DNA from: Ignisphaera sp.
GTDB lineage: Archaea; Thermoproteota; Thermoprotei_A; Sulfolobales; Ignisphaeraceae
Direction: 5' to 3'
DNA length: 53,995 bases
NCBI GenBank assembly: GCA_038821645.1
Contig: JAWBDT010000014.1
Location: 1 to 53,995, forward strand
Notes under the pieces: model-generated
What the model was told of the DNA's origin: nothing
Databases searched by the model: none
What the model saw: only the letters and a program-made list of their open reading frames with translations
Part shown: positions 37,716 through 51,423 of the stretch, piece after piece
Numbering within the stretch: the stretch's first letter is position 1
Layout of the letters: each line of letters opens with the position of its first letter
Translations under genes and position numbers: made by a program

Positions 37716-39815
37716 TTAAATTGTGTATTGATAATCTTTTCTACCGATGAATCTTATAGCTATAGCCACAAGTATTGCTAATGCGACTGTTACAACTATT
37801 ATAATGAGAGAAACAGCTACATCCGATAGATTAACTGTAGTAGTACTTACTGTTCCATGTTCTTTGCCGTAAACTGGTTTTTCCTGAGTTACTGTAATAG
37901 TATGGGTTATTGTAATCGTTTTTGTTATCGTTCGTATTGTTTCATCCATTGGAGTTTGAGTAGCAGTCTCAATACCTATTGTAGAGGTAATAGTTTTGTT
38001 TTCGGTTATCAAAATAATCGATCTGTATATAGTTAATATCATTGAAAGTTTTGTCAACATAGTTATTTGTGAATATGGATTTTCCTTAAGGTTTTCTATA
38101 ATTTCAATGTAGAGAGGAGCATCTATTGGTATATAATTACCCAACATGTTTAAATTCATATGTAAAGTTCTATTTAGTGTATATATTGTAGCTTCCATAG
38201 ATTGAATGAACATAGAAACTAGGGTTAAGTACATATAGCTTATGGAGCTTATGCCTAGAGTAAGTTTATCTAGATCATTATCTGTTTTCTGAAGAAGGTT
38301 ATATCTAGCTTCAACGTCATCAAGTACTGTAGGTAGATTTATCAAAGAGGTTGAGAATGCCATTATATATGCATATATGTTTTGAGCTAATATATGTATA
38401 TACATAGCCATGGTTCTGATATTATATAGATCTATTGCACCATTATATATATCTGTTACATTAGCTAATTCACTCCATAATTTAGCTGTATAGAGTCTCG
38501 CAGAAGCATATGCTAAGTAATTTACAGCACTTTCTATATCACTTGCTCTAAGACTTCTATTAACGTATATAGCTGCTTCATATGCTCTATCCAGAACATT
38601 TATAGCTACTGAAAGCTCTGCTTTACTGGAGATAGTTTTCTGACGTATGTTATCTATGAATTCGTATATAGAGTTATTTAGTGATGAACCAAAACTTTTT
38701 ACGAAATTTGGATCCTGTATTGTGTTTAGCAAGTAAAGCCTTGTATATGCATATGTGAGTACCTGGAAATACATAGATGCAGCTGAATAGAAACTATCTT
38801 TACTCACCATGTACTCAGCTTCTCTACTTAAATTATCTATATTGTTGTCTATGGAGTTCAGAAGCCCTAAAAGGTATCTATATGTATATAGTGTGTACAT
38901 GGACTTAGCTCTTGCAAGAGCCTCTTCCTCTACTTCTTTACTCTTATTCATTACATCCGCTATCTCATCCTTTAATTTCTTCACCCAGTTCTCTACTACA
39001 TACTTAATTGAAGAATATATTCTACTTGCCACATCAGTATCTGAATCCTTTATCCTGACGCTGTATCTACCATCAGTAAATATCTCGAGAGCTTCATATA
39101 CATTAGTTACAGGAACTACCTTTACACCAATTCTAGCTCCATATTCACTCAAGTTAATAGCTTCTCTTACTGTTCTAGTAATAATTAGAGGACCTATTCT
39201 TTCTGTAACCACTCTCTGTATATAGTCTACTGTTTGTCCATAAGGAACTATAAACAATTTTGCACCACGACTATAAGCTGCATCAAGTTTGTACTTAATT
39301 CCACCTACAGGACCTATACTTCCATCAGGCATGATCATACCGGTCATAACTACTGAGCCATTGAGAGGCAGTCTAAGTAATGCTGCTGCAAAAGCTACTG
39401 CTGTAACACCACTTGCACTAGGACCTCCAATTATTGTTGTATTAGCTTTTATAGATGCATAGAAATCGTAATGATTGAAGTTTACACCAGCTATATAACT
39501 AGCTACTAATGCAGCTATTCTTGTTGATGCTTGTAGATCAAGTTGACTTAATGGTAATGTCTCGACATACACATGACCATTACCAGGATATACTACACGT
39601 ACATAGAGATCTGCAGAAACACCTACATAACTACCATTCGCACTTGTTGAAACTGCTACTACTGTAACATGTCTAGACTCATCTAGTTTGTATTCATTAG
39701 CAACAACACTACCATAGCTAAGGATTACTATTAATGCAAGCATTAGAGATTGAAAAACTTTTGTATCAATAATCATAACTTCATAACACCTTCTACCCGT
39801 TATAGCATTTGCCAC
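37716..39815 (-). CDS. Secreted S16 (Lon-like) Ser-Lys protease (COG1750-like), membrane-tethered
   Basis: Signal peptide, GGPSASG, MTGMIMPDGSIGPVGGIKYK, Thr-rich stalk, C-terminal TM. Confidence 0.88.
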   Translation of the reverse strand: MANAITGRRCYEVMIIDTKVFQSLMLALIVILSYGSVVANEYKLDESRHVTVVAVSTSANGSYVGVSADLYVRVVYPGNGHVYVETLPLSQLDLQASTRIAALVASYIAGVNFNHYDFYASIKANTTIIGGPSASGVTAVAFAAALLRLPLNGSVVMTGMIMPDGSIGPVGGIKYKLDAAYSRGAKLFIVPYGQTVDYIQRVVTERIGPLIITRTVREAINLSEYGARIGVKVVPVTNVYEALEIFTDGRYSVRIKDSDTDVASRIYSSIKYVVENWVKKLKDEIADVMNKSKEVEEEALARAKSMYTLYTYRYLLGLLNSIDNNIDNLSREAEYMVSKDSFYSAASMYFQVLTYAYTRLYLLNTIQDPNFVKSFGSSLNNSIYEFIDNIRQKTISSKAELSVAINVLDRAYEAAIYVNRSLRASDIESAVNYLAYASARLYTAKLWSELANVTDIYNGAIDLYNIRTMAMYIHILAQNIYAYIMAFSTSLINLPTVLDDVEARYNLLQKTDNDLDKLTLGISSISYMYLTLVSMFIQSMEATIYTLNRTLHMNLNMLGNYIPIDAPLYIEIIENLKENPYSQITMLTKLSMILTIYRSIILITENKTITSTIGIETATQTPMDETIRTITKTITITHTITVTQEKPVYGKEHGTVSTTTVNLSDVAVSLIIIVVTVALAILVAIAIRFIGRKDYQYTI

Positions 39816-41080: not shown

Positions 41081-42409
41081 TTATACATTTAATGTTGTAT
41101 TTTGATTAAATCTCTTTAGAAGATCTTGAATAGATGGTGTATTTCTATTCTTTGTATATTTTTCAAGAAGAATAAATACACAGAATTGACCACACATAGT
41201 ACAACCTTTAACATTTTCTCTAAACTGTGTACGTATACTTCTAGATTTCTCTGGATCTAGACTAAGCTCTATCTGTTTCTCCCAATCTAGATTTGCTCTA
41301 GCTAAGCTCATCTCTATATCGTGTAGAGCTGCTATAGAACCACGTTTAATTATGTCTCCAGCATGTGCAGCTATTTTTGTTGCTATAAGTCCTTCCTTGA
41401 CTTGTTCTACATTTGGTAAAGATAGATGTTCAGATGGTGTTAAATAACATATAAAGTCTGCACCTGCTGCTGCAGCTATAGCTGCACCTATTGCTGTAGC
41501 TATGTGGTCGTATCCTAAAGCTATATCTGTTACAAGAGGTCCTAAAACAAAGTATGGAACGCCGCCGCTTAAGCTCTTCATAAGCTTTATATCTGCAACA
41601 ATTTTATCTAATGTCATGTGACCAGGTCCTTCGATAATGACTTTAACACCTTTAGCGATAGCATCTCGTGCAAGTCTCGAGTTATTTAATAGTTCAGCTA
41701 TCTGAAAATAATCGTGTGCATCAACTATTGTTCCAGGTCTAAGCGCGTCTCCTAAACTTATTGTTGCTTCATATTCTTTGAATAGTTCGAGAAGATACTC
41801 CCAATGCTTTAGGTACGGATTCTCTTCAGAATTCTCAAGCATCCATACAGCAAGCATAGAGCCTCCTCTACTAACTATGGGCATCAGTCTATTACTTCTC
41901 ATAGATTTTTCAGCCAACTCTCTAGTTAGACCTGCATGTATAGTCATGAAGTCTACACCATCTTTTAGATGTTTCTCTACAATAGATATATACCAGTCAG
42001 AAGGAAATGCTGTAGACCCGAATTTTTTTACACCATCTATCCATGCTTGATACGTAGGCACTGTACCAAAAGGTATAGAGCTAGCTATAGATAGAAGTTT
42101 TCTTCTAATTTCATCAATATCTCCACCTGTACTAAGATCCATAACGCTATCTGCTCCATAGAGCATTGCTACCTTAACCTTTTCAACCTCTAGATCTAAA
42201 TCTACATAAGATCCGCTAGTCCCAACATTAACATTAACTTTTGTGCTCAGTCCTTCTCCAAGAGCTACTGGAGTTACATTTTTCCTCTTTATATTCCTTA
42301 GAACAACTATTCTACCAGTTTTCATACCTCTGATGATCTTATCTACATCAACTTTCTCTTTCAATGCTATAGATCTGATCTCCTCGTCCACGATATTCTG
42401 TGTAACCAC
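41081..42409 (-). CDS. thiC: Phosphomethylpyrimidine synthase
   Basis: [63 protein letters not shown]. Confidence 0.95.
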
Positions 42410-42429
42410 AATTACAGCCCTCTACAATG

Positions 42430-42446
42430 AAGATACTCAGTATCTT
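42430..42446. promoter_or_regulatory. Palindromic operator candidate at thiC promoter
   Basis: AAGATACT-C-AGTATCTT perfect inverted repeat abutting the minus-strand TTATTAAG box. Confidence 0.5.
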
Positions 42447-42510
42447 AATAACCCTATCTAATATAACTTATTGAAACACATTTTACTGTATGTAGAGCTC
42501 TATAGTTTAT

Positions 42511-43194
42511 GTGTTTCTCGATCTCTACATCTCCTTTGGTGACTCCTCTTTGAATCTATTGGTAAAAATGTACATAGATTTCTTATATAGTGAACTTGAA
42601 CCAGATGTTGTAGAAGAGATAATGAATATACCTCCAGGTCTCAAGATACTTAGGAACAACACAAAAAGTAACCTATTTGATCATCCACATATAGTTTTGT
42701 GGCACAAATTTCTACTAAGGTACTTTAATCCAGAATACAGCAGTAAGCCCTACGCCATACTTATGCCGTGTACCCCGATTAAACCCTATAGGTTATCTGC
42801 AACACACAGAATAGTAGATTCCACACTATATAGACTTAGACTAGATCATTATACCCAGATCTATGTGCTTTCTGAGCCCATGGTTATAGTACCTAGAGAA
42901 CTAGATATATACTATCCTTTTGCAAACTATGAGTATCCAATATATGAGCTTTCTGAAGAATATAGAGAAAGATTTGTATCACTTCTATCTATTATTCTAC
43001 CTAAGCTAGAGTACCATAAGAAGATAATAGCAGTACTTCCAAAACACCATAAAGCAATACTTCTCGAAAGCTTCAAGAAATCGAAAATGAATACCAACAT
43101 CGAGATCCTAGACTACGGAAAAAAGAGCTTTAGCTCAGTAAGAAAAGCTGTAGACATTGTTACAAAATACATAAAGGAATACAGTTACCGTTAA
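42511..43194 (+). CDS. DUF5591 (archaeosine synthase ArcS-related) domain protein
   Basis: ILMPCTPIKPYRLSATH, LSEPMVIVPREL, YPFANYEYP. Confidence 0.7.
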   Translation: MFLDLYISFGDSSLNLLVKMYIDFLYSELEPDVVEEIMNIPPGLKILRNNTKSNLFDHPHIVLWHKFLLRYFNPEYSSKPYAILMPCTPIKPYRLSATHRIVDSTLYRLRLDHYTQIYVLSEPMVIVPRELDIYYPFANYEYPIYELSEEYRERFVSLLSIILPKLEYHKKIIAVLPKHHKAILLESFKKSKMNTNIEILDYGKKSFSSVRKAVDIVTKYIKEYSYR

Positions 43195-43228
43195 CTCCAT
43201 TGATCTTGCGTTCTACTAGTGAATTTAA

Positions 43229-44587
43229 TTACCCTTTCTCTAGCCTAATTAAACTGTAGAGTGATGATAGAAGTAGAGGAAACGCTATAACTAGTGATAC
43301 ATAGTTTTTATGAACAAAAGACATAACTACTGTTGGTAGAGATAGAGATAAGGCTAGTACTTCAGAAATATCGAATCTAGATCTAGAAGAAAAGACCTTA
43401 GGAGTTATCCTATATCTATAGCTTAATCTAAATAGACCTCTTAATGCATATATCCCCAGCAAAGGTGATAAAAGTGTATATATTGCTCCAACTCTTCCAG
43501 AGAAATATATTCTCTTCCATCTATCTATCTTGAGCACCTTATTGCTATAGATATTAAATACCAGAGATTGGATAGATAGAGTTATAGCTATAGGTAATAC
43601 ATATGTTGGACTTACACTAACACCTCTCTCTATTATAGAGCATATTAAAGCTGTTGAAAAAGCAAGTAATGCAAATATGCTGGAGATGGGTTGAAAAACA
43701 TAGAGTAGAGCTTCTAGCTTCCTCCAAAGATCTATAGGAGCTTCAATAACCCTATCGAGAAATCTTGAAATAATATTCATGGCACCGTAACTCCATCTAC
43801 ATTGCTGAACTCTAGCTGCATTAAGTGTCTTGGGGACACCGACATCTATATAGCTGTTGATTAATCTAGGCCTTATACCTCTATACATAAGTTCGAAACC
43901 AAGCCAAATATCGTCTTGAATCACATCGATTCTCCAGAAACCTATAGATTTAAGCAAATCTTTATCTATAGCTGTTCCAGACCCCAGAGGATATATGAAG
44001 AGGTTAAGTCTTGATCTAAGCTCGTAGTAAATCCAGCTACCAAATCTAGTTATATATGCCATACCTTCTTCAACTTTTGTATAAGAATCTATGTAGGGAT
44101 TCCAAATACCTACACACACATCTCTGCATCTCTTAGCTTTACACAGAAGTTCTTTTGATGGAACTGTATCTACATCAGCTATAAACACTACATCGCCTTG
44201 AGATAATTTAGCACCATCAGATAAAGCACTATTTCTACCACCAAAACTATTGAATCTAGCAACTACAATACCTCTAGAGAAAAACATAGAATCCATAGAA
44301 GAAACAACACTAACAACATAATTAATACTATCATCAAAAACAACTACAATATCATCAACACACTCAATCCCAGATAAAATAACCAAATTCCTAACAACCA
44401 GATCTCTAGGCTCATTCCTAGAAGGTACAACAACAGAAAGACTTCTAGAATCATCTCGCTCGTTCTCTATAAAATCTGCAGTATCAAGTCTAGAGCATCG
44501 GAGCATTATTAAAGCAGGATAAATTGTTGAAAGAAATATTGATAAAAAGAAAAACAAGTAGCTAATAAAAGATATCAATACCAACAT
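43229..44587 (-). CDS. GT2 processive glycosyltransferase (cellulose-synthase-like)
   Basis: VVVPSRNEP, FDD, DVD, QDD, QQCRW; TM helices at both ends. Confidence 0.85.
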   Translation of the reverse strand: MLVLISFISYLFFFLSIFLSTIYPALIMLRCSRLDTADFIENERDDSRSLSVVVPSRNEPRDLVVRNLVILSGIECVDDIVVVFDDSINYVVSVVSSMDSMFFSRGIVVARFNSFGGRNSALSDGAKLSQGDVVFIADVDTVPSKELLCKAKRCRDVCVGIWNPYIDSYTKVEEGMAYITRFGSWIYYELRSRLNLFIYPLGSGTAIDKDLLKSIGFWRIDVIQDDIWLGFELMYRGIRPRLINSYIDVGVPKTLNAARVQQCRWSYGAMNIISRFLDRVIEAPIDLWRKLEALLYVFQPISSIFALLAFSTALICSIIERGVSVSPTYVLPIAITLSIQSLVFNIYSNKVLKIDRWKRIYFSGRVGAIYTLLSPLLGIYALRGLFRLSYRYRITPKVFSSRSRFDISEVLALSLSLPTVVMSFVHKNYVSLVIAFPLLLSSLYSLIRLEKG

Positions 44588-44813
44588 CCATCACCAATAT
44601 TGTAGACACAATAAATCTACATAAAAATTTAACCTAGCTTTAACAAATACATTGAGTAAATCAAAGAATAACATACTTATTGAAAACAAGATTAATTGAA
44701 TACAAAAACACTTCTAAATAACAACACCTATACAACTAAATTCCGATTATAAAGCTCTATAAATAAAAGATTGAAAAATATATGCTGAAAAGATCTAAAA
44801 ACAGATATTATGT

Positions 44814-45230
44814 TTATACAGTAAATGTATATCTAGCTTCAGTACCTCTTGCAGTAATTACAATAACCTCATAAACATTTCCAGAGGTTAAAGAACAGGA
44901 GATAGTTACTGAGCCACTACTTTTAGTATTTACAGTTGCTCCAGGGCTTGCTGAACATACTGTTTGACCGTTGTTATCTAATACTGCAGCATAAGCTATA
45001 TCTACATTTACAGAACCGAGATTAAGAACATAGACAGTAATAGCTTTGGTTGATGAATTATAATTTATCCCTGTTATTCTTATTCTTTCTTGTAGTGCTT
45101 GTTGTTCTGATGGTGGTGCTCTAGCTACTGCTCCTGATACCCATGTCCATAAGAGTACTCCTGCTGCTACTGCTATCATTACGAGTATTACTGTTGCTAC
45201 TATAGGTGAAATACCTTTCCTTGCCGACAT
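44814..45230 (-). CDS. Archaeal type IV pilin
   Basis: Class III signal peptide MSARKG/ISPIVATVILVMIAVAAG; QERIRI, VYVLNLG; start moved to ATG 45230 (SD GGTGA). Confidence 0.92.
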   Translation of the reverse strand: MSARKGISPIVATVILVMIAVAAGVLLWTWVSGAVARAPPSEQQALQERIRITGINYNSSTKAITVYVLNLGSVNVDIAYAAVLDNNGQTVCSASPGATVNTKSSGSVTISCSLTSGNVYEVIVITARGTEARYTFTV

Positions 45231-45434
45231 AGGTTTCACCAAATCCATGTCTATAGTTGCTGGATATTATTGTTGGGTTTTAGAAGCGACTAGTGAGCTA
45301 GATACTCAATGTTCTATATACGTGTGTATAGTTTCTACTAGAAGTCTTTTTGTGATTTGTTTTCGCTTTATGTTCTGTATTTATTAGGTTTCTTGAGTAT
45401 CTAGGTGCTTGGTGTAGAGAGTAGGTGATGGTGA

Positions 45435-46328
45435 TTGGTATTAGGTTCTGTTTCTAGTTTTTTGTATAGGTTGTATGGAGTTGTGTATAGCTTTTTGTAT
45501 AGTTTCTATAGGGGGTTGGGTGTTGATAGATTTGTTGTTGGTTCTGGTCTTTCACCTAGTCTAGAGAGATATGTGTCTATTGTTTTTAAGCTTATTATCT
45601 GTATATTGGTGTCTATGATTTTGATTGTATCAATTTTTCTATACAGTGCTTACGGTTTGAATCCCTATCTCTCTATAGCTATATCATTTGTGTTTAATTT
45701 GTTTGTTGTATTACCTATATCTATTGTATTCTCAATTGTTTTACCTAAGTCTATGTATTCTAATAGAGGATCTATTGTAGAATCTAAGATGCCTATACTG
45801 TTATCGGCTATGGCTTTTCTTTCTTCTGCCGGTCTATCTCTACATGAGATGGTTTCTAAAATAGGTATGTTTCTTGGTGATGACTATAGGTTCTTCTCTG
45901 TAGAACTAGATATAGTTAGATCATATATACGTATAGGTGTACCTCTTGAAGAAGCTTTAAGGTATGTAGCTCATCTAACTCCTTCGCAATCGTTTAGAGA
46001 ACTTCTTCTAGGTCTTTCATCGATTTCTGTTATTGGAGGTGATATAGGGTCTTTTATTAGATCTATGTTTGATAGATATGTATCCAGATACGAGCTTATG
46101 ATTGAGAAGGCTGTAAATAGTCTGAATGTGTATATGGAGGTATATGTAGCTGTATCGCTCCTGATTCCCGTTTTAGCTGGATCTACAGCTGTTTTATTCA
46201 TTCTATCACCTATAGCAGGAATATCTTTTGAAGCTTTCATGGCTCTAGTAACATTTATATTGATACCTATACCATCTGCTGTAATAATAGTTTTAGCTGA
46301 CACTATTGTATCTAGATTGAGGCCTTAG
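45435..46328 (+). CDS. Type IV pilus membrane platform protein (TadC/T2SSF family)
   Basis: TM pair, ESKMP.LL..M..LSSAG, G.PLEEAL...TPS..FRELL, C-terminal TMs. Confidence 0.85.
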   Translation: MVLGSVSSFLYRLYGVVYSFLYSFYRGLGVDRFVVGSGLSPSLERYVSIVFKLIICILVSMILIVSIFLYSAYGLNPYLSIAISFVFNLFVVLPISIVFSIVLPKSMYSNRGSIVESKMPILLSAMAFLSSAGLSLHEMVSKIGMFLGDDYRFFSVELDIVRSYIRIGVPLEEALRYVAHLTPSQSFRELLLGLSSISVIGGDIGSFIRSMFDRYVSRYELMIEKAVNSLNVYMEVYVAVSLLIPVLAGSTAVLFILSPIAGISFEAFMALVTFILIPIPSAVIIVLADTIVSRLRP

Positions 46329-46330
46329 CT

Positions 46331-47236
46331 ATGATAAAGAAGGCTTTAGTTATAGCTCTAGGTACCTCATTTATTCTAATCATCCCTATATATGTGGCTC
46401 CCACAATATCTAGATTACTGGGTTTAGATCTCTTTAACGGAATAGAAGGTATATACATAGATATCTCAAATGATGTTCTCCCCATACCTATCTATAGATC
46501 TAGTGATGTATATCTATTTGTTGGATTTGTTTATGGAGCTATAGCTTTTTGCCTCTATATGCTGTATAGAGATTCTGTGTATATGCGTATGAAACTTAGG
46601 GAACAAATCCAGTCAATGGTTCCGTTAGTAGTTTCGTATGTTAGAACTGGAACACCTATCTTAACAGCTATAGAGAATGCTGCTAATTTTGTTGGAGATC
46701 CAACTAAATCTTATTTAACTAGATTTGTAGAACTTGTTAAACTTGGGTATAGTCCTGAGGAATCAATGCGCAACATATTTAGGGGTATTCCAAGAGATGT
46801 CTTATCGGTGTATCTATCTATAGCTGTGGCTATGTCTAGTGGTGGACGTGTTCACGATGTACTATCAACTGCTGAGAGATATTTGAATCAGATGAGTAGA
46901 TTAGAGGAAATGAGGAAGAACCGTCTAGAGGGATACAAAGCTATACTGATTCTAGCATTAATGGCGTTTACTGTTAGTGCTATAGTTACAACTATACTTG
47001 TGTCTTATGTTGCTAGAATGAGTCCTATACCTATATCTACTACACCACAGAGTCGAGTAGATATAGCTAGAGTTCTATCCTATTACTACACACTTATACT
47101 TGTACTAACCCCTCTTACATCGATAGCTTTAAGCAGAATAGTGTACAACGAAACAGCTATAGCTTTAAAGTACACAGCATTATTCATAACAACTATATCT
47201 ACAGTCTTTGCTCTAGCCTATAAATTGTTTCTCTAG
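46331..47236 (+). CDS. Second type IV pilus membrane platform protein (TadB/T2SSF family)
   Basis: VRTGTPILTAIE, LG.SPEESM, SSGGRVHDVL, C-terminal TMs; 2-nt gap from previous gene. Confidence 0.8.
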   Translation: MIKKALVIALGTSFILIIPIYVAPTISRLLGLDLFNGIEGIYIDISNDVLPIPIYRSSDVYLFVGFVYGAIAFCLYMLYRDSVYMRMKLREQIQSMVPLVVSYVRTGTPILTAIENAANFVGDPTKSYLTRFVELVKLGYSPEESMRNIFRGIPRDVLSVYLSIAVAMSSGGRVHDVLSTAERYLNQMSRLEEMRKNRLEGYKAILILALMAFTVSAIVTTILVSYVARMSPIPISTTPQSRVDIARVLSYYYTLILVLTPLTSIALSRIVYNETAIALKYTALFITTISTVFALAYKLFL

Positions 47237-47338
47237 ACAATTCAAGAGAGAATCCATAACCTCAAAATGTTCACAGAATCATTCAAACCAACATATACTA
47301 AAAATCCCTCTCATCAACCTGTTTAACTTATTAATGCT

Positions 47339-47353
47339 GAAAAGTTTTTAGTA
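47339..47353 (+). promoter_or_regulatory. BRE/TATA-like promoter for a probably leaderless 47375 gene
   Basis: GAAAAG-TTTTTAGTA ending 22 nt before ATG 47375. Confidence 0.5.
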
Positions 47354-47374
47354 GATAGCAAGTGGGTTTCAGCA

Positions 47375-48433
47375 ATGCCTAAGAAAAAAGTGCGAACTTC
47401 AGAAGGCTTTATAGTTGATGAAGAGAGTGGTGAAGTTCTAGATGACACAGCTATAGATTTTGAGCATCCTGAGTATAGAGCCTATAGTTATGAAGAATAC
47501 CGAAGAAAGGCTCACTACGAACCTATTCAAAAGGTTTATGGAGATAGGCTCTGTGTAGATGATGAAGTTGCTGAGAGGATAGTTTCACAGATAATACCGG
47601 GGCTCGTCGAGATAATTAAGGTGTATCTGAGGAAGAGTTTGTGTAGTGCTGATAGAGATGAGGTGTATCGTTTCTTTTCTTCTCTCTGGGGCAACGTTGG
47701 TGCAGAGATTGTTAGAGGAGTTATAGAGAAAAGACTTAGCATGTCTTTACCAGAGTCACAGGCATATGATTTAGCGGGACTAGATGGTTTGACAGTATTT
47801 AGATGTCTGAAGAACGCTGGACTTGATGAAAGTTCTGTTGTTGAAGCGATAAAGAGTTTTATCGAGGGTTTCGAACCTAGAGATAGCTACACATATACCT
47901 TAGTGAGAGACTTATTCACATCAATTAGAAACGGAAAGCAGAGTGCCTTGATAAGGTGGATCTCTAAACCTATCGACAATGTTATAGATATGGATTACGC
48001 TGTACGTGTTTTTAGCGTAGAGCCTAAGAAGCTTAGAAATGTTGTGTATCTTGTGGTTAAGATTCGTGGACTAGGTGTACAGATAACATCAACTAAAATC
48101 GATATATCGTCGAGGTATGGTGAAGAGAGTATTGTGATAGAGACTATAGACCATTTATCGAGGAGGCTAGGTATAGAGCTTTCTAAGCCTATACCCATGA
48201 TAGCTACAGTCATAGTCAAGATGCCGTTCAAAATAAATCTTCAAACATTATCCAGATTCGAGAATGCTTCTCCCCAGGGCAACAGAGTAAAGATTATGGG
48301 GCAAGGATATACAGCACTTGTATATCCATCGACCATTAACATGTATATAAATCTAGCTGGAACACTTGACAGAATTGGTGTGGCTCTAGCTCAAGCACTT
48401 CCAACAGTATGTACATATGCAGAAAAAAAGTAA
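47375..48433 (+). CDS. TFB N-terminal (B-ribbon/B-reader)-like domain fused to a divergent TBP-like domain
   Basis: aa 9-47 EGFIVDEESGEVLDDTAIDFEHPEYRAYSYEE resembles crenarchaeal TFB GEYICxETGEVLEDxIIDxGPEWRAFTPEE. aa ~190-350 show a two-repeat TBP pattern. Confidence 0.7.
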   Translation: MPKKKVRTSEGFIVDEESGEVLDDTAIDFEHPEYRAYSYEEYRRKAHYEPIQKVYGDRLCVDDEVAERIVSQIIPGLVEIIKVYLRKSLCSADRDEVYRFFSSLWGNVGAEIVRGVIEKRLSMSLPESQAYDLAGLDGLTVFRCLKNAGLDESSVVEAIKSFIEGFEPRDSYTYTLVRDLFTSIRNGKQSALIRWISKPIDNVIDMDYAVRVFSVEPKKLRNVVYLVVKIRGLGVQITSTKIDISSRYGEESIVIETIDHLSRRLGIELSKPIPMIATVIVKMPFKINLQTLSRFENASPQGNRVKIMGQGYTALVYPSTINMYINLAGTLDRIGVALAQALPTVCTYAEKK

Positions 48434-48545
48434 TGATATTGTATTAACTTGGGCTTGCCACAAGATATCATTAATTAGATCCAATTAATTAGATCTAGCT
48501 GTCTACTCAACTAGATTAACAATCTGTAGCTTTAGGCATGTTTCA

Positions 48546-48833
48546 CTATTTCGATATTATCCTACTTAGATCCTCTATTACTTTCTCTGCTTCTGCTACA
48601 TCCTTGGCTTCGATAACATGTGAATGATCTGGTAACAGAACAACTGTGTACTTATCGTACTTGACTATATATACAGGTCCTTTGTCGAGATACTCACCAA
48701 GTTCAGCACCTAGTTGAGGATTCTTGAACACTCTAAGAAGTTTGGCAACAGTTGAGTATCTAAGAGCCTTAATCCCCTTGCTAAGGAAAGCAGTTTCGTC
48801 TTTCACAGATATAGACTTCGATACCTTAACCAT
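48546..48833 (-). CDS. Small protein, putative single TBP-like domain
   Basis: GPVYIVKYDKYTVVLLPDHSHVIEAKDVAEAEKVIEDL resembles TBP PGxIYRxxxPKxVxLxFSSGKxVxxGAKSxxDAxxAV; own TATA (48869-48877) and SD. Confidence 0.6.
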   Translation of the reverse strand: MVKVSKSISVKDETAFLSKGIKALRYSTVAKLLRVFKNPQLGAELGEYLDKGPVYIVKYDKYTVVLLPDHSHVIEAKDVAEAEKVIEDLSRIISK

Positions 48834-48971
48834 CTATCTACACCCACAGCCCATACATCCTCTGAGAGTTTATAAATATTGAATCAGTAAAACTAAAGAG
48901 GCTATTTCCTGTAGAGCATGTAGTGCTAGATTGATTGTGACTAATATGATGTAAATGTGTAGTGCATCTAT

Positions 48972-50396
48972 CTATGATGTTACTTCGATACCTTCTCTTG
49001 CTAGTATAGCTCTAGCTACAACTATACCTGTAGCTGCTGCTACATTCATACCTCTCGATAGTCCTACACCATCTCCAGCTACAAACAGGTTTCGAAGGTT
49101 TGTTTCGAGTTCTCTAGATGTTCTAGCTTTCACGCTATAGAACTTTATCTCGGGAGCATATAGTAGTGTTTGTTGAGATGCTACGCCAGGAACTATTGTA
49201 TCCAATCTTCTTAGTGCTTCTACTATATTTACTACTACTCGATATGGATAAGCCATAGCTATATCTCCAGGAGTTACACTCTTTAATGTTGGATCAACTA
49301 CGCTTCTCTCTATTCTTCCCCATGTGCTTCTTCTACCAGCTTCTAGATCCCCGAATCTCTGAATGATTGGTTTACCTCCACCAAGTTTTGTTGCTAATCT
49401 AGATATGCTTTTTCCGTAAGCTATAGTGTCTTCAAATGGATCTGTAAGTCTTAATGTTACAAGAAGAGCAAAATTCGTATTCTTTGTCTTTATGTTTGTA
49501 AAGCTTTCTCCATTCACACCAACAGATCCATCAGGATATCTCTCTTCAACTACAAGTCCATATGGATTTGTACAAAACGTTCTTACCTTATCATCATAAC
49601 TTTTGGTATACATAACTATCTTTGGATCTCTAACAAGTTTCGTTAAGGGTTCCATAACATATGATGGAACCTCTACCCTTACCCCTATGTCTAGGGGACC
49701 TGGCTCTATCTCTATACCCCTTCTTCTAGCTAATTCTGAAAACCATTCAGCTCCTACTCTTCCTGGTGCAAGAACCACATATCTACTTTCTATAACCCCT
49801 TTACATGTCTTAAGCCTGTAGCCCTTAGCCGAAGGCTCTAGATCCTCCACTTGACACATGTCTATCAGGTATACACCTTCTTCTTCTAAGAATCCTGCAA
49901 TGTTTGCTATGACCTTTGGCATATTGTCTGAGCCTATCAATCTCTGAGGCGTTGGTATAAATTTTGCACCAGCTTTTGCTGCTAAACGTTCTAGCTCTGA
50001 TGCTTGTTCACCATCTATCGAGTATATGTTGTTTGGTGCACCAAATTTAACTAGTACGCTATCTACGTAATGGATAATGTTTTCTGCTTCTTCCCAACTA
50101 CCTATAAGCTTATCTAGATCTCCACCAACATCTGGTCTAAGATTCATTGTACCGCTACTAAATGTTATTGCTCCACCTATACCCGTCATAACATGACATG
50201 GACTACAGCTTACACAATCTCTATCTCTTGCAAGTTTCTTTAGGTTTAACATAGGGCATGTTCTAAAAGGATTACCGCTACCCATCTCTATAACTGTTAT
50301 CTTAAGCTTCTTTTTGTTGTGTATAGCTAGTTCATATGCAGCAAACAGACCTGCAACTCCACCTCCAACAATAGCTACATCGAATTCCTTCTCCAT
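48972..50396 (-). CDS. FAD-dependent oxidoreductase (COG2509-like)
   Basis: IVGGGVAG, GIGGA.TFS.G, APGRVG, DIGVRVE, RTFCTNP, YAPEIKFYS, AGDGVG. Confidence 0.88.
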   Translation of the reverse strand: MEKEFDVAIVGGGVAGLFAAYELAIHNKKKLKITVIEMGSGNPFRTCPMLNLKKLARDRDCVSCSPCHVMTGIGGAITFSSGTMNLRPDVGGDLDKLIGSWEEAENIIHYVDSVLVKFGAPNNIYSIDGEQASELERLAAKAGAKFIPTPQRLIGSDNMPKVIANIAGFLEEEGVYLIDMCQVEDLEPSAKGYRLKTCKGVIESRYVVLAPGRVGAEWFSELARRRGIEIEPGPLDIGVRVEVPSYVMEPLTKLVRDPKIVMYTKSYDDKVRTFCTNPYGLVVEERYPDGSVGVNGESFTNIKTKNTNFALLVTLRLTDPFEDTIAYGKSISRLATKLGGGKPIIQRFGDLEAGRRSTWGRIERSVVDPTLKSVTPGDIAMAYPYRVVVNIVEALRRLDTIVPGVASQQTLLYAPEIKFYSVKARTSRELETNLRNLFVAGDGVGLSRGMNVAAATGIVVARAILAREGIEVTS

Positions 50397-50403
50397 ATAA
50401 TCC

Positions 50404-51423
50404 TCACCAAAGCATTCCTAACTCCTTTCTTCTATCTATTGTACATAGAACATCTTCACCTGTACCAACTATAGTAATAGGGGTCTTGAGTTTATTCTCT
50501 ATATCTTCTATCCATTTTCTAGCCTCTTGTGAAAGTTTATACCATTCTCTAACACATTTGTCTTGTTTAAATAGCGAATCTAATCTGGTTAAAGCTATCT
50601 GTGTAGCTGAATTAAGCATTACAGCTCTTCTAGCTAGATCTATATTGAATGGAGCTACACGTCTAATCCTACCGGTAACTGTTCCTGTTTCTAGAAGCCC
50701 GAGTTTCTGAGCTTCTTCAAAACTCATTTCATTCTCTAGAGGACCTCCACCAACTCTTGTTACATAAGATTTGAACACAACTATGACATGGTCAACTCTC
50801 TTAGGACCTACGCCAACTTCCGATAGAAAAGCCGAAGCTATTGTATCTCTACTTGTTACATATGGATAGGTACCGTGGTAAAGACTTAGGTATGTCCCTT
50901 GGACACCTTCTATATAGACTAGTTCTCCTCTATCTAAAGCTTCATTAACTTCTAGAGCTACATCAGTAACCATATCCTTCAAATACTCTACATCTTTAGC
51001 CACCTTAAGTCTTCTGAGAACTCTATCAACCATAGCTGCTCCAACACCTTGAAGCGTAGATCCAACAGTTTTAACTAGAAATTCATCGCTTCTCTCTATC
51101 TCTACATGTTTTTCCTCTATTACACCTGTATTTCTATCTACGTATATCCTGTTCTTGACATTAGTTTCCTCAATTTCTTTAAATAATACATCTAACCTTA
51201 TTAATGCTCCTGCTGCTATCATTAGCTTTACGTTCTTACCTAAGAAAAATGATGGTACTATCCTAAGCCTCCATATAGTTCCATTGAAAATCACTGTATG
51301 TCCGGCATTTATAGAACCGCATCTAACTGCTATAGCTGGTTTATCTATGTATCCTAGATATGCCGCTATCTTACCTTTACCTTCATCTCCAAAAAATCCA
51401 CCAACAATAACAGCTAGAGGCAT
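50404..51423 (-). CDS. purA: Adenylosuccinate synthetase (short archaeal type)
   Basis: GGFFGDEGKGK, NAGHT, EGVQG, GTYPYVTS, YVTRVG, GTVTGR.RR. Confidence 0.96.
   Translation of the reverse strand: MPLAVIVGGFFGDEGKGKIAAYLGYIDKPAIAVRCGSINAGHTVIFNGTIWRLRIVPSFFLGKNVKLMIAAGALIRLDVLFKEIEETNVKNRIYVDRNTGVIEEKHVEIERSDEFLVKTVGSTLQGVGAAMVDRVLRRLKVAKDVEYLKDMVTDVALEVNEALDRGELVYIEGVQGTYLSLYHGTYPYVTSRDTIASAFLSEVGVGPKRVDHVIVVFKSYVTRVGGGPLENEMSFEEAQKLGLLETGTVTGRIRRVAPFNIDLARRAVMLNSATQIALTRLDSLFKQDKCVREWYKLSQEARKWIEDIENKLKTPITIVGTGEDVLCTIDRRKELGMLW

Follow-up and report, generated by a model that had tools for sequence, protein, structure and literature searches.

A candidate regulator built from TFB and TBP parts and its association with type IV filament genes in Ignisphaera-type archaea

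Introduction

Does the close packing of type IV pilus genes with genes resembling the basal transcription factors TFB and TBP reflect a dedicated regulatory programme, or is it a local accident of genome arrangement? The question is raised by a 53,995-nucleotide stretch of an Ignisphaera sp. genome (contig JAWBDT010000014.1, hereafter the window; its genome is denoted G000), in which six contiguous genes for a GT2 glycosyltransferase, a type IV pilin, two platform proteins, a 352-residue protein (P352) and a 95-residue protein (P95) lie side by side. The genes that border them encode ThiC (41081-42409) and a DUF5591 protein (42511-43194) at one end; at the far end an FAD-dependent oxidoreductase (48972-50396) is followed by PurA (50404-51423). 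The initial annotation took these six genes for a non-housekeeping block in which basal-factor paralogues control a pilus/EPS programme; all six are indeed open reading frames at the positions that it gave between the thiC/DUF5591 and purA sides.

Most of what is known of gene-specific regulation through alternative basal factors in archaea comes from the multiplied TBP and TFB genes of haloarchaea and from TFB2 and TFB3 of the Sulfolobales. TFB3 has retained the zinc ribbon and contains a coiled-coil. It is described as a truncated TFB paralogue that controls the ups and ced genes in Sulfolobales, activating ups pili, ced and further DNA-damage genes (PMC6101591, PMC6101594, PMC9905601). More broadly, a comparative survey gives TFIIB homologues as the commonest predicted regulators in archaeal type IV pilus (T4P) and archaellum loci (PMC4858521).

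Composition of the 352-residue protein

P352 (47375-48433, + strand) is the core of the present finding. Searches of Pfam and NCBIfam with the protein return no match, and its make-up is drawn instead from profile comparisons and from an AF2 model of mean pLDDT 78. Residues 10-62 (47402-47560, + strand), comprising a TFB-like ribbon remnant and a B-reader-like PEYRAY...RKAHY motif, share homology with the N-terminal end of the TFB encoded in the same genome (hhalign, probability 93%, E 2.8e-7), that TFB being a protein with PF00382 and PF08271 domains. The P352 profile matches the N-termini of TFBs in many genomes with E values of 1e-9 to 1e-12, the second-best match in each genome being the N-terminus of a TFB gene of ~290 residues, and the NCBIfam TFIIB model conversely matches the N-termini of the P352 homologues of G279 (E 4.7e-5) and G341 (E 2.3e-9). 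Both hhalign and profile matching, therefore, point to a B-reader/B-linker segment homologous to that of TFB, the PEYRAY part of which is absent from about half of the close homologues. No zinc ribbon with four Cys/His ligands is found in P352, and PF08271 is not matched; its N-terminal part holds a single cysteine, the corresponding parts of all 26 aligned family members hold between zero and two, and the model shows this part of P352 as three short strands of low confidence (pLDDT 37-56).

The homology with the genome's TFB stops, in the hhalign alignment, at residue 62, and PF00382 searches of P352 find no cyclin repeat at E<=0.1. What follows is a middle region of six helices in the AF2 model (residues 63-189; 47561-47941, + strand), the first part of which is missing in distant members of the family. 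TFIIB and cyclin chains are absent from the 50 best VIA-align matches, obtained with the whole P352 model as query rather than with the helical part folded alone.

The C-terminal half (residues 190-352; 47942-48430, + strand) is predicted to be a bipartite, TBP-like saddle of two tandem beta-alpha-beta4-alpha repeats, with secondary structure modelled at pLDDT 80-94 and the complete two-repeat saddle extending over residues ~180-352. TBP chains stand at the top of a Foldseek search with the model (E 5e-8, TM 0.62-0.70 on target), and VIA-align gives Z 9.7-11.8 for five TBP-containing representatives, as against Z 6.4 for the next fold, with 163-171 residues aligned at 8-14% identity. This likeness lies in the fold: PF00352, the TBP family, is not matched in the Pfam search, and hhalign detects no sequence similarity between P352 and the genome's TBP (E 0.08, probability 0.7%). 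All 26 of 26 members carry a net positive charge in this domain, from +2 to +16, and along its strands conserved polar residues recur with i/i+2 spacing (R.K, T.N.Y,.DISS.), both features being indirect signs that the concave sheet may bind and bend TATA-box DNA. P352 has the same bipartite saddle topology as TBP over ~165-170 aligned residues (VIA-align Z 10.6-11.8), here fused behind a TFB-like N-terminus. On sequence and model evidence P352 is a real chimera of basal-factor parts, a TFB N-terminus joined to a TBP fold, and the TFB-TBP-like identity first assigned to it is upheld in both halves. The genome retains, in addition, one canonical TBP and two TFBs.

Relation to known factors

The nearest architectural analogue is Brf1-TBP, in which a TFIIB-family factor and TBP share one polypeptide. 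The Brf1-TBP chains 8ffz_H and 6cnb_R of Pol III structures, which we take to be engineered fusions, are matched by both Foldseek and VIA-align, with good alignment only in the TBP part (VIA-align, model residues 180-352). In the literature searched, no paper was found that describes a TBP fold fused to the portion of TFB that touches RNA polymerase.

The likeness to TFB3 concerns make-up and gene neighbourhood. Both are TFB-derived factors tied, in the case of P352 by its neighbourhoods, to type IV pili and DNA-exchange genes, TFB3 having no canonical two-cyclin core and P352 none that is detectable; the homologues in G021 and G279, each in one cluster with the genes for a VirB4/CedB-like ATPase and a pilin of UpsA-like type, recall the ups/ced regulon in particular. 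As TFB3 is described, the two nevertheless differ, since P352 has no zinc cysteines, keeps a B-reader-like motif and carries a complete TBP fold. A second comparison is with arCOG01981 and arCOG05559, named in the comparative survey as TFIIB homologues of T4P/archaellum loci (Makarova, Koonin and Albers 2016, PMC4858521), where arCOG05559 is portrayed as a reduced form with one cyclin domain, operonic with ATPase and platform genes. These, too, are TFB-like genes associated with type IV filament loci by comparative genomics, but they are described there with zinc finger and cyclin domains and with no TBP fold, whereas P352 has no detectable cyclin repeats or zinc ligands. Searching the survey's supplementary table for the G003 homologue by its start coordinate gave no match. 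P352 is, in other words, a variation on an already known pattern of TFIIB homologues in T4P loci.

Genomic neighbourhoods of P352

The P352 family is tiny, with 20 members among 1.84 billion representatives, 18 close homologues and a presence in 17 of 351 genomes of the class. Outside the window, 13 loci are informative as to its neighbours, and in 10 of these, drawn from related genomes that are not independent observations, a type IV filament gene or an ArnR-like regulator lies within 5.5 kb; by a rough estimate from seven loci, ~5-10% of G000 falls within that distance of such a gene. The commonest neighbour is the ArnR-like gene (NF041016, E 1e-23 to 1e-26, under the equivalog cut-off), which abuts P352 beside the archaellum operon in G004, G009 and G018 and lies 0.8 kb from it in G014. 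ArnR and ArnR1, the archaellum activators of Sulfolobales, have a wHTH fold unrelated to P352, such that the ArnR-like protein is a neighbour and not a relative; the archaellum operon of G000 itself, on contig C6, is headed by such a gene. In G016 and G007 P352 is divergent from an archaellin gene across gaps of 178 bp and 92 bp, respectively, and in G003 it lies 4.7 kb from the arlJ-type T2SSF gene that ends the archaellum cluster. The expectation that homologues would stay beside T4P genes is, taken in a broader sense, largely realised, the usual partner being the archaellum and not the pilus of the window. Within the window, a Lon_C-domain protein (PF05362; 37716-39815, - strand) has orthologues that flank P352 in G004, G009, G010 and G018 (46% identity over 680 residues by tblastn), which shows that less than 8 kb still separates P352 from a long-standing neighbour.

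Beyond the archaellum, G021 and G279, which belong to different families, share the order YdjM-CarboxypepD_reg-P352-VirB4-like-UpsA-like pilin, in which P352 is co-oriented, tightly packed and directly upstream of the ATPase and pilin genes; the ATPase has weak similarity to CedB (E 1.4e-5), and in G279 a T2SSE gene and an UpsF-like gene lie just upstream. From this packing, from the basic C-terminal domain and from the non-transcriptional roles that TBP-like folds also serve (PMC3597702), with RNase HIII and DNA glycosylases among the examples, it could be argued that P352 is not a transcription factor and instead helps a pilus/VirB4-type DNA-transfer apparatus to handle DNA, which its saddle would hold. 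Such a role is quite improbable: the N-terminus is specifically TFB-like, B-reader motif included, G000 has no VirB4-like gene of the G021/G279 kind, and in most genomes P352 stands beside the ArnR-like regulator and an archaellin gene that is promoter-proximal.

The domain assignments and gene neighbourhoods together support a regulator that derives from basal factors and is linked to type IV filaments. We give an even chance to the fuller reading that P352 is a lineage-restricted transcription factor, assembled from basal-factor parts and partnered in the genome by the type IV filament machinery. The loss of the zinc ligands, the low-confidence model of the N-terminus, the TBP-like domain's want of sequence similarity to TBP and the non-transcriptional uses of such folds weigh against it. 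In such a factor the TFB-type N-terminus, that is the ribbon remnant and B-reader, would supply the polymerase-contacting part of TFB, the helical linker would stand in for the cyclin core, and the basic saddle would be covalently attached. Its ancestral partner in the genus would be the archaellum operon with its ArnR-like regulator, and in two other lineages the pilus/VirB4-like cluster. The saddle may then bind DNA at filament-gene promoters and the N-terminus engage RNA polymerase, such that P352 would activate or gate filament promoters beside or instead of TBP and TFB, much as TFB3 does for ups/ced; both the target genes and the sign of regulation are presumptive. P352 is, in this sense, a candidate regulator of archaella and pili in Ignisphaera-type hyperthermophiles, for which the sole earlier lead was the ArnR-like gene. 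If it is active at promoters, the TBP-TFB bridge can be hard-wired in one chain, and the protein would offer a compact model for the cooperation of the two activities. A stronger form of this reading, and an unlikely one, is that P352 is a natural single-chain initiation factor in which saddle and polymerase-recruiting head together start transcription at filament promoters without TBP and TFB; if true, archaea would have in it a 'one-piece', sigma-like alternative to the basal factors, reserved for the appendages of motility, adhesion and DNA exchange.

The candidate transcription factor has to be weighed against a role as a general modulator of the basal machinery with no specific filament tie, its neighbourhoods being one inherited arrangement followed by shuffling. 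One example would be a decoy that sits on RNA polymerase where TFB binds, or on TFB or DNA where TBP binds. Consistent with a general role, rearrangement in the genus is heavy, three of the 13 loci (G010, G017 and G341) have no filament gene within 5.5 kb, and P352 is kept in G006, G014 and G021, where archaellin was not detected. The locus of G011, a genome that was not Pfam-scanned, resembles that of G010, with archaellum genes 18 kb off. Against it stand three distinct filament contexts across lineages, including the five-gene synteny common to two families, and the co-variation of P352 with archaellin, both being present in 11 genomes of the family and neither in 10, with P352 alone in three and archaellin alone in two; in G005, moreover, P352 is in pieces and archaellin is without a match. 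On balance a general role appears unlikely.

Upstream region and RNA-library coverage

Two further observations bear on the general role and, in themselves, favour it. The region upstream of P352 (47237-47374, + strand) contains a purine-rich and T-rich BRE/TATA-like element, gaaaagtttttag, at about 47340-47353, which from its sequence is a putative promoter, and the proximal ~75 nt are near-identical between G000 and a second genome, G013, while the distal part has diverged. In addition, P352 is covered in RNA-library contigs where the adjacent pilus genes are not: depth is 0 in the bin 47018-47304 and 59 in the bin 47305-47591, and 34-59 across P352. In run X1, the data of which are contigs and hence a poor measure of expression, P352 is well covered while depth is 0-4 over the T2SSF genes and 0 over the GT2 and pilin genes, so that expression of P352 alone would not appear to switch on the pilus and GT2 genes. 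Put as a ratio, P352 has in this metatranscriptome a contig depth ~10x that of the T2SSF genes, and depth falls to zero in the stretch that separates them.

The pilus genes of the window

The genes initially annotated as pilin, tadC and tadB are confirmed as such by family models. The pilin (44814-45248, - strand) has a class III signal peptide (motif KG/ISPIVATV; TIGR02537, 33.7 bits against a cut-off of 20) and is UpsA-like, its match to the UpsA model (E 2.4e-13) being under the equivalog cut-off. Across a divergent intergenic region (45249-45434) lie two single-domain platform proteins, T2SSF_a (45435-46328, + strand; PF00482, 53 bits) and the TadB/TadC-like T2SSF_b (46331-47236, + strand; PF00482, 44.5 bits), the second of which occurs in 21 of the family's 26 genomes.

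In G003, G014, G016 and G010 the corresponding genes form an operon in the order pilin-ATPase-T2SSF_a-T2SSF_b, with T2SSF_b last and with orthologues of the window's T2SSF_a in its usual place. The window pilin is 41-42% identical to the pilin of these operons and is inverted relative to their order, and no secretion ATPase (T2SSE) is found in the window. An ATPase orthologue, with 63-65% identity to its counterparts in the relatives, lies on another contig (C4:37275-38840) behind a second pilin, where an aldo-keto-reductase-like gene replaces the T2SSF_a/b of the relatives. Despite this separation the pilus system may be complete in trans. As part of the preferred explanation, and with the same even chance as the whole, the window pilin and two T2SSF genes would be the translocated platform half of a conserved pilus operon in G000 and G013. 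Nine genomes possess the T2SSF gene of this pilus but lack a full-length P352, from which it follows that a pilus of the window type does not need P352.

GT2, P95 and the block as a unit

There remains the reading put forward at the outset, in which the GT2, pilin, two T2SSF, P352 and P95 genes are one aggregation or biofilm programme under two dedicated basal-factor paralogues. In its favour, the six genes are contiguous in both G000 and G013, the pilin/T2SSF_a intergenic region is 96% identical between these genomes, and a TBP-like fold is modelled for P352 and possibly for P95. The P352 locus is syntenic with the window in G013 alone, however, and the juxtaposition is therefore confined to one shallow clade of two genomes; elsewhere the GT2 gene, the pilus operon and the P95 gene are apart from each other. 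Within the block itself, RNA-library depth varies more than tenfold, the secretion ATPase lies outside, and P352 and P95 have no profile similarity to one another.

The GT2 gene (43229-44587, - strand; PF13632, PF00535 and PF13641 over cut-off) encodes a membrane glycosyltransferase that 23 of the family's 26 genomes have as a single copy, either on a different contig from the pilus and P352 genes or at a distance of more than 235 kb from them, with no gene of the block within 1.5 kb at any of the eight loci examined. By this comparison GT2 is outside the P352/pilus unit. P95 (48546-48833, - strand) is likewise conserved, in 20 of 26 genomes of the family and as a single copy in 16 of 16 of the genus, and adjoins a class-III aminotransferase gene in four loci and DUF5591 in two (G010 and G011). 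It is near P352 only in G000 and G013, and since DUF5591 and P95 are direct neighbours in G010 and G011, it looks like a native flank lying outside the filament system. The label 'non-housekeeping' is accordingly doubtful for both genes; a pilus/EPS programme that includes them is not supported by comparison of the genomes and is highly improbable. Their adjacency to the pilus genes and P352 is, judged from gene order, a product of rearrangement in a much rearranged region. The tidy-looking block is then a recent mosaic, and genome annotation should not tie GT2 or EPS functions to a pilus by adjacency alone.

P95 has some interest of its own. It has no family match, Foldseek returns nothing at E<=0.001 and hhalign detects no TBP homology (E 0.13), yet the best three of 48,161 chains in VIA-align are the C-terminal TBP repeat (Z 6.3, 5.9 and 5.8 over 68-69 residues, the tool itself urging caution below Z 8). 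An ESM-Atlas lead (score 0.87) points to an archaeal cluster of 98-residue proteins with PF00352 in 13% of members. With Z ~6, an empty Foldseek search and the ESM-Atlas lead, the 'mono-TBP-like' description first given to this gene is thus a lead at the level of fold, suggested by the best structural matches and not by homology searches, and P95 is possibly a single TBP-type repeat. Monopartite TBP-domain proteins have been reported from some euryarchaea (Brindefalk et al. 2013, PMC3597702). P95, although it comes from an Ignisphaera-type genome, resembles them in its length of ~95 residues, its best structural match and its partly PF00352-containing cluster, and, on the modelled fold, is a possible counterpart of these proteins.

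Architecture of the 352-residue protein

The best-supported reading of the 352-residue protein (P352; 47375-48433, + strand) is that it is a regulator derived from basal transcription factors, whose conserved partner appears to be the type IV filament machinery. P352 has no family match in Pfam or NCBIfam, a sequence search of the PDB returned a chance match only (E 0.13) and a search of the ESM Atlas gave no usable match. A word-indexed search found 18 similar proteins, and 20 family members (E ≤ 0.001) emerged when the profile was run against 1.84 billion representatives. No match was obtained by tblastn against plasmids and phages, and there is thus no sign that P352 is carried by known mobile elements.

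In the AlphaFold2 model, built on the 18-sequence alignment (mean pLDDT 78, pTM 0.67), residues 1-62 are poorly modelled, with three short strands at pLDDT 37-56, residues 63-189 form six helices and residues from about 190 to 346 form two beta-alpha-beta4-alpha repeats at pLDDT 80-94. TBP chains head the Foldseek matches in the PDB (E 5e-8, about 170-190 alignment columns, TM 0.62-0.70 on the target) and, when the model was compared with 48,161 representatives by VIA-align, five TBP-containing chains reached Z 9.7-11.8, the next fold standing at Z 6.4. In sequence, hhalign detects no similarity to the TBP of the same genome (E 0.08).

The N-terminal part is, by profile comparison, homologous to TFB. 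In this regard, the N-terminus of a TFB gene of ~290 residues is the second match of the P352 profile in nearly every genome, and residues 10-62 of P352 align with residues 14-66 of a TFB encoded on contig C4 of the same genome (hhalign probability 93%, E 2.8e-7), an ORF that carries PF00382 and PF08271. The aligned part comprises the second half of the ribbon and a B-reader-like motif (PEYRAY...RRKAHY in P352 vs PEWRAF...RRRAH), of which the PEYRAY stretch is missing in about half of the close homologues. The zinc cysteines are absent from this part, with 0-2 Cys in all 26 members, and no cyclin repeat is found by Pfam, by hhalign or among the best VIA rows. The same rows offer no cyclin fold for residues 63-189, a helical part that was folded within the whole protein. 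All 26 aligned members combine an acidic N-terminus with a TBP-like domain of net positive charge (+2 to +16). With TFB homology at the N-terminus (hhalign) and a TBP fold behind it (Foldseek, VIA), the label 'TFB-TBP-like fusion' of the initial annotation is thus a fair description. By inference from fold to function, the basic saddle of the TBP-like domain would contact DNA and the TFB-like head would contact the polymerase.

The canonical basal factors of the genome are one TBP and two TFBs. The second TFB, on contig C4 (L022:949-1833(-); 294 residues, PF00382 and PF08271), has only two cysteines in the ribbon region and resembles the N-terminus of P352 more than any other TFB does; ORFs of ~290 residues resembling it occur in most genomes of the genus.

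Among predicted regulators at archaeal T4P and archaellum loci, TFIIB homologues are the most frequent, and they include a reduced, one-cyclin form that is operonic with ATPase and platform genes (PMC4858521; PMC13705601, section 15). Three other papers place ups and ced under the control of TFB3 in Sulfolobales (PMC6101591, PMC6101594, PMC9905601). TFB-derived regulators at filament loci are already known, and P352 is, to judge from its domain make-up, a new architectural variant; a literature search, in part of the opening lines of abstracts, found no description of a TFB-TBP fusion protein.

Genomic context of P352 homologues

Full-length P352 was found by a class-wide profile search in 17 of 351 genomes, namely the present one (G000), 14 others of its family, G279 and G341, all other matches being TFB N-termini or fragments in G005. 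A sample of 401 genomes of the phylum held no new member, and searches of metagenome and genome contigs gave no confirmed further relatives of the P352 loci. The sources of the protein matches name the close relatives Ignisphaera. Domains were assigned by Pfam to 120 of the 133 ORFs around ten homologues (the 13 ORFs of locus L038 fell outside that run, and nine of them were scanned later) and by NCBIfam to 40 ORFs chosen for their silence in Pfam.

Three different filament contexts emerge. In G016 and G007, P352 and the archaellin gene point away from each other with 178 and 92 bp between them, and the archaellum operon follows (Arch_flagellin, ArlX, KaiC-like, T2SSE, T2SSF). In G004, G009 and G018, it abuts a gene of ~305 residues beside the archaellum operon, and in G014 such a gene lies 0.8 kb away. 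This gene resembles the archaellum regulator ArnR of Sulfolobales (NF041016, E 1e-23 to 1e-26, below the equivalog cut-off); pairwise identity among its seven copies is 37-62%, and one heads the archaellum operon on contig C6 of the present genome. In G003, the archaellum cluster closes with a T2SSF gene, and P352 stands 4.7 kb further on. G021, from the second genus of the family, and G279, from another family, share five co-oriented genes, YdjM, CarboxypepD_reg, P352, a VirB4-like ATPase and an UpsA-like pilin (L042:6391-11066 and L122:6423-11080), a synteny that may represent a pilus-linked DNA-transfer module; directly upstream of the shared cluster, G279 also has genes for a T2SSE ATPase and an UpsF-like platform protein.

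Other loci lack such neighbours. No filament gene lies within 5.5 kb of P352 in G017 or G010, the archaellum genes of the latter being 18 kb off on the same contig, as they are in G011, whose locus was outside the domain scan. In G341, methyltransferases and unknowns surround the gene and the contig ends 1.1 kb downstream of it; the contigs of G006 and G005 are too short for the context to be judged. Altogether, a filament or ArnR-like gene lies within 5.5 kb of P352 at 10 of the 13 informative loci outside the window, related genomes being non-independent in this count, and a rough estimate from seven loci with T2SSE, T2SSF or archaellin genes puts about 5-10% of the G000 genome within the same distance of a gene of this kind. 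Homologues do for the most part stand near type IV pilus genes elsewhere, as the initial annotation had proposed to check, provided that archaellum and ArnR-like genes are included. The deep forks of the P352 tree are without resolution, and it therefore gives no order of events.

Within the family, the presence of P352 co-varies with that of archaellin: 11 genomes have both, 10 neither, three P352 only (G006, G014, G021) and two archaellin only (G008 and G023, 75% and 55% complete). No archaellin was found in the 99%-complete G014, although P352 and the ArnR-like gene are kept (L039). G005 has no archaellin match, and its P352 survives only as two broken frames of 151 and 94 residues (G005:C46). 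A pilus T2SSF gene is present in nine genomes without full-length P352.

Several further genes were observed at these loci. In five genomes (L033:9131-9469, L034:10203-10523, L036:10493-10792, L038:5183-5497, L032:8673-9056), an immediate neighbour of P352 is a conserved ORF of ~100-127 residues that contains Gly-Asn-Gly repeats and the motif SPWLL.WLAEANGYRD; it has no family match and no counterpart in G000. Two large proteins without family match, of about 507 and 760-795 residues, follow arlJ in G003 and G000 (L032:10682-14606 and L061:1133-4929), in G003 standing between arlJ and P352, and in G014 a 196-residue relative of the former is divergent from P352. In G016, the ORF of the archaellum ATPase (T2SSE; L040:2680-5718(-)) has 1012 residues and contains an intein splicing domain, PF14890.

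The pilus block and its history

The window is contig C14 of the 31 contigs of the 1.57-Mb genome. Its region 41081-51423 contains, in order, ThiC(-), DUF5591(+), a GT2 glycosyltransferase that is a membrane protein (43229-44587, -), a type IV pilin with class III signal peptide (44814-45248, -), two single-domain T2SSF platform proteins, a and b (45435-46328 and 46331-47236, both +), P352, the 95-residue ORF P95 (48546-48833, -), an FAD-dependent oxidoreductase(-) and PurA(-). By ORFs and by Pfam and NCBIfam matches, the gene content of the proposed block, from GT2 to P95, is borne out.

Comparison does not support the block as a unit. Regions reaching as far as 9.5 kb to either side of P352 were taken from 14 genomes and compared by tblastn with twelve proteins of the window; of these genomes G013 alone, whose P352 is 89% identical, shares the arrangement. 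In G003, G014, G016 and G010 the pilus genes are co-oriented in the order pilin, ATPase (~515 residues), T2SSF_a, T2SSF_b and a HAD-like gene. In G000, a second pilin, the orthologous secretion ATPase (63-65% identity) and the HAD-like gene lie outside the window at C4:36730-41557, where an aldo-keto-reductase-like gene and a 200-residue gene occupy the place of the relatives' T2SSF pair. What the window contains is therefore the platform half, translocated, with its pilin inverted and the ATPase missing. The pilus operon was split in the G000/G013 lineage. Around 43229-48433, only short repeats at chance level were found in the search for flanking repeats and att-like sites, and no insertion is marked.

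GT2 is single-copy in 23 of 26 genomes of the family, on other contigs or far off (>235 kb in G003), and in none of eight loci examined does a gene of the block lie within 1.5 kb of it. P352 is flanked by a Lon_C-domain gene in G004, G009, G010 and G018, the orthologue of which lies at 37716-39815 in the window, such that P352 is still near an old neighbour and other genes have been shuffled in. Its adjacency to the platform genes is recent and not necessarily functional. Of the programme first envisaged, in which dedicated basal-factor paralogs would control pilus and EPS genes, the nature of the protein and a link to filaments are in part upheld by domain make-up and neighbourhoods. The extent of the system, with GT2/EPS and P95 as members, is not supported by comparison.

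The 95-residue protein

P95 has 24 close homologues, of which 23 were aligned with a mean column identity of 65%, and is single-copy in all 16 genomes of the genus, ~65-90% identical, and in three of four of the second genus. Its model (pLDDT 80) found nothing in Foldseek at E ≤ 0.001. The best three VIA chains are the C-terminal TBP repeat (Z 6.3, 5.9 and 5.8; rmsd 2.4-2.9 over 68-69 residues), all short of the Z of 8 under which the tool advises caution. A lead from the ESM Atlas is a 98-residue archaeal cluster (score 0.87, 178 shared features) with PF00352 in 13% of its members, and hhalign gives no signal between the P95 family and either TBP or P352 (E 0.34 for the latter). The designation 'mono-TBP-like' is best treated as a lead. 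It would agree with the monopartite TBP-domain proteins that PMC3597702 reports from some euryarchaea; P95 may be a crenarchaeal protein of this kind.

P95 adjoins P352 only in G000 and G013. Within ±1.5 kb it has a class-III aminotransferase gene as neighbour in four genomes and DUF5591 in two. In the window, the five genes of 43229-48433 lie between DUF5591 and P95, and these two therefore look like native neighbours.

Expression and upstream region

RNA library X1 consists of metatranscriptome contigs 95-99% alike to the window, hence from a related strain. Word depth in X1 is 0 over GT2 and the pilin, 0-4 over the T2SSF genes, 0 at 47018-47304 and 34-59 over P352. The region's highest contig depth, about 110, falls in bin 48453-48739, which covers most of P95. 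Contigs reflect expression only poorly, and some DNA may have been carried over, yet these steps of more than tenfold between adjacent genes fit separate transcription of P352. Of the raw-read RNA runs, X4 yielded four reads, and X2 and X3 yielded none.

Upstream of P352, G000 and G013 are nearly identical over the proximal ~75 nt, and the distal part has diverged. Within this conserved stretch, about 25-35 nt before the ATG, a purine-rich and T-rich element is the putative BRE/TATA of a leaderless gene. No upstream motif common to the P352 genes of 13 genomes is evident by eye. Downstream, one contig of X1 skips 166 bases (48882-49047) that cover the intergenic region together with the 3' end of the FAD-oxidoreductase gene, and this is probably a strain difference.
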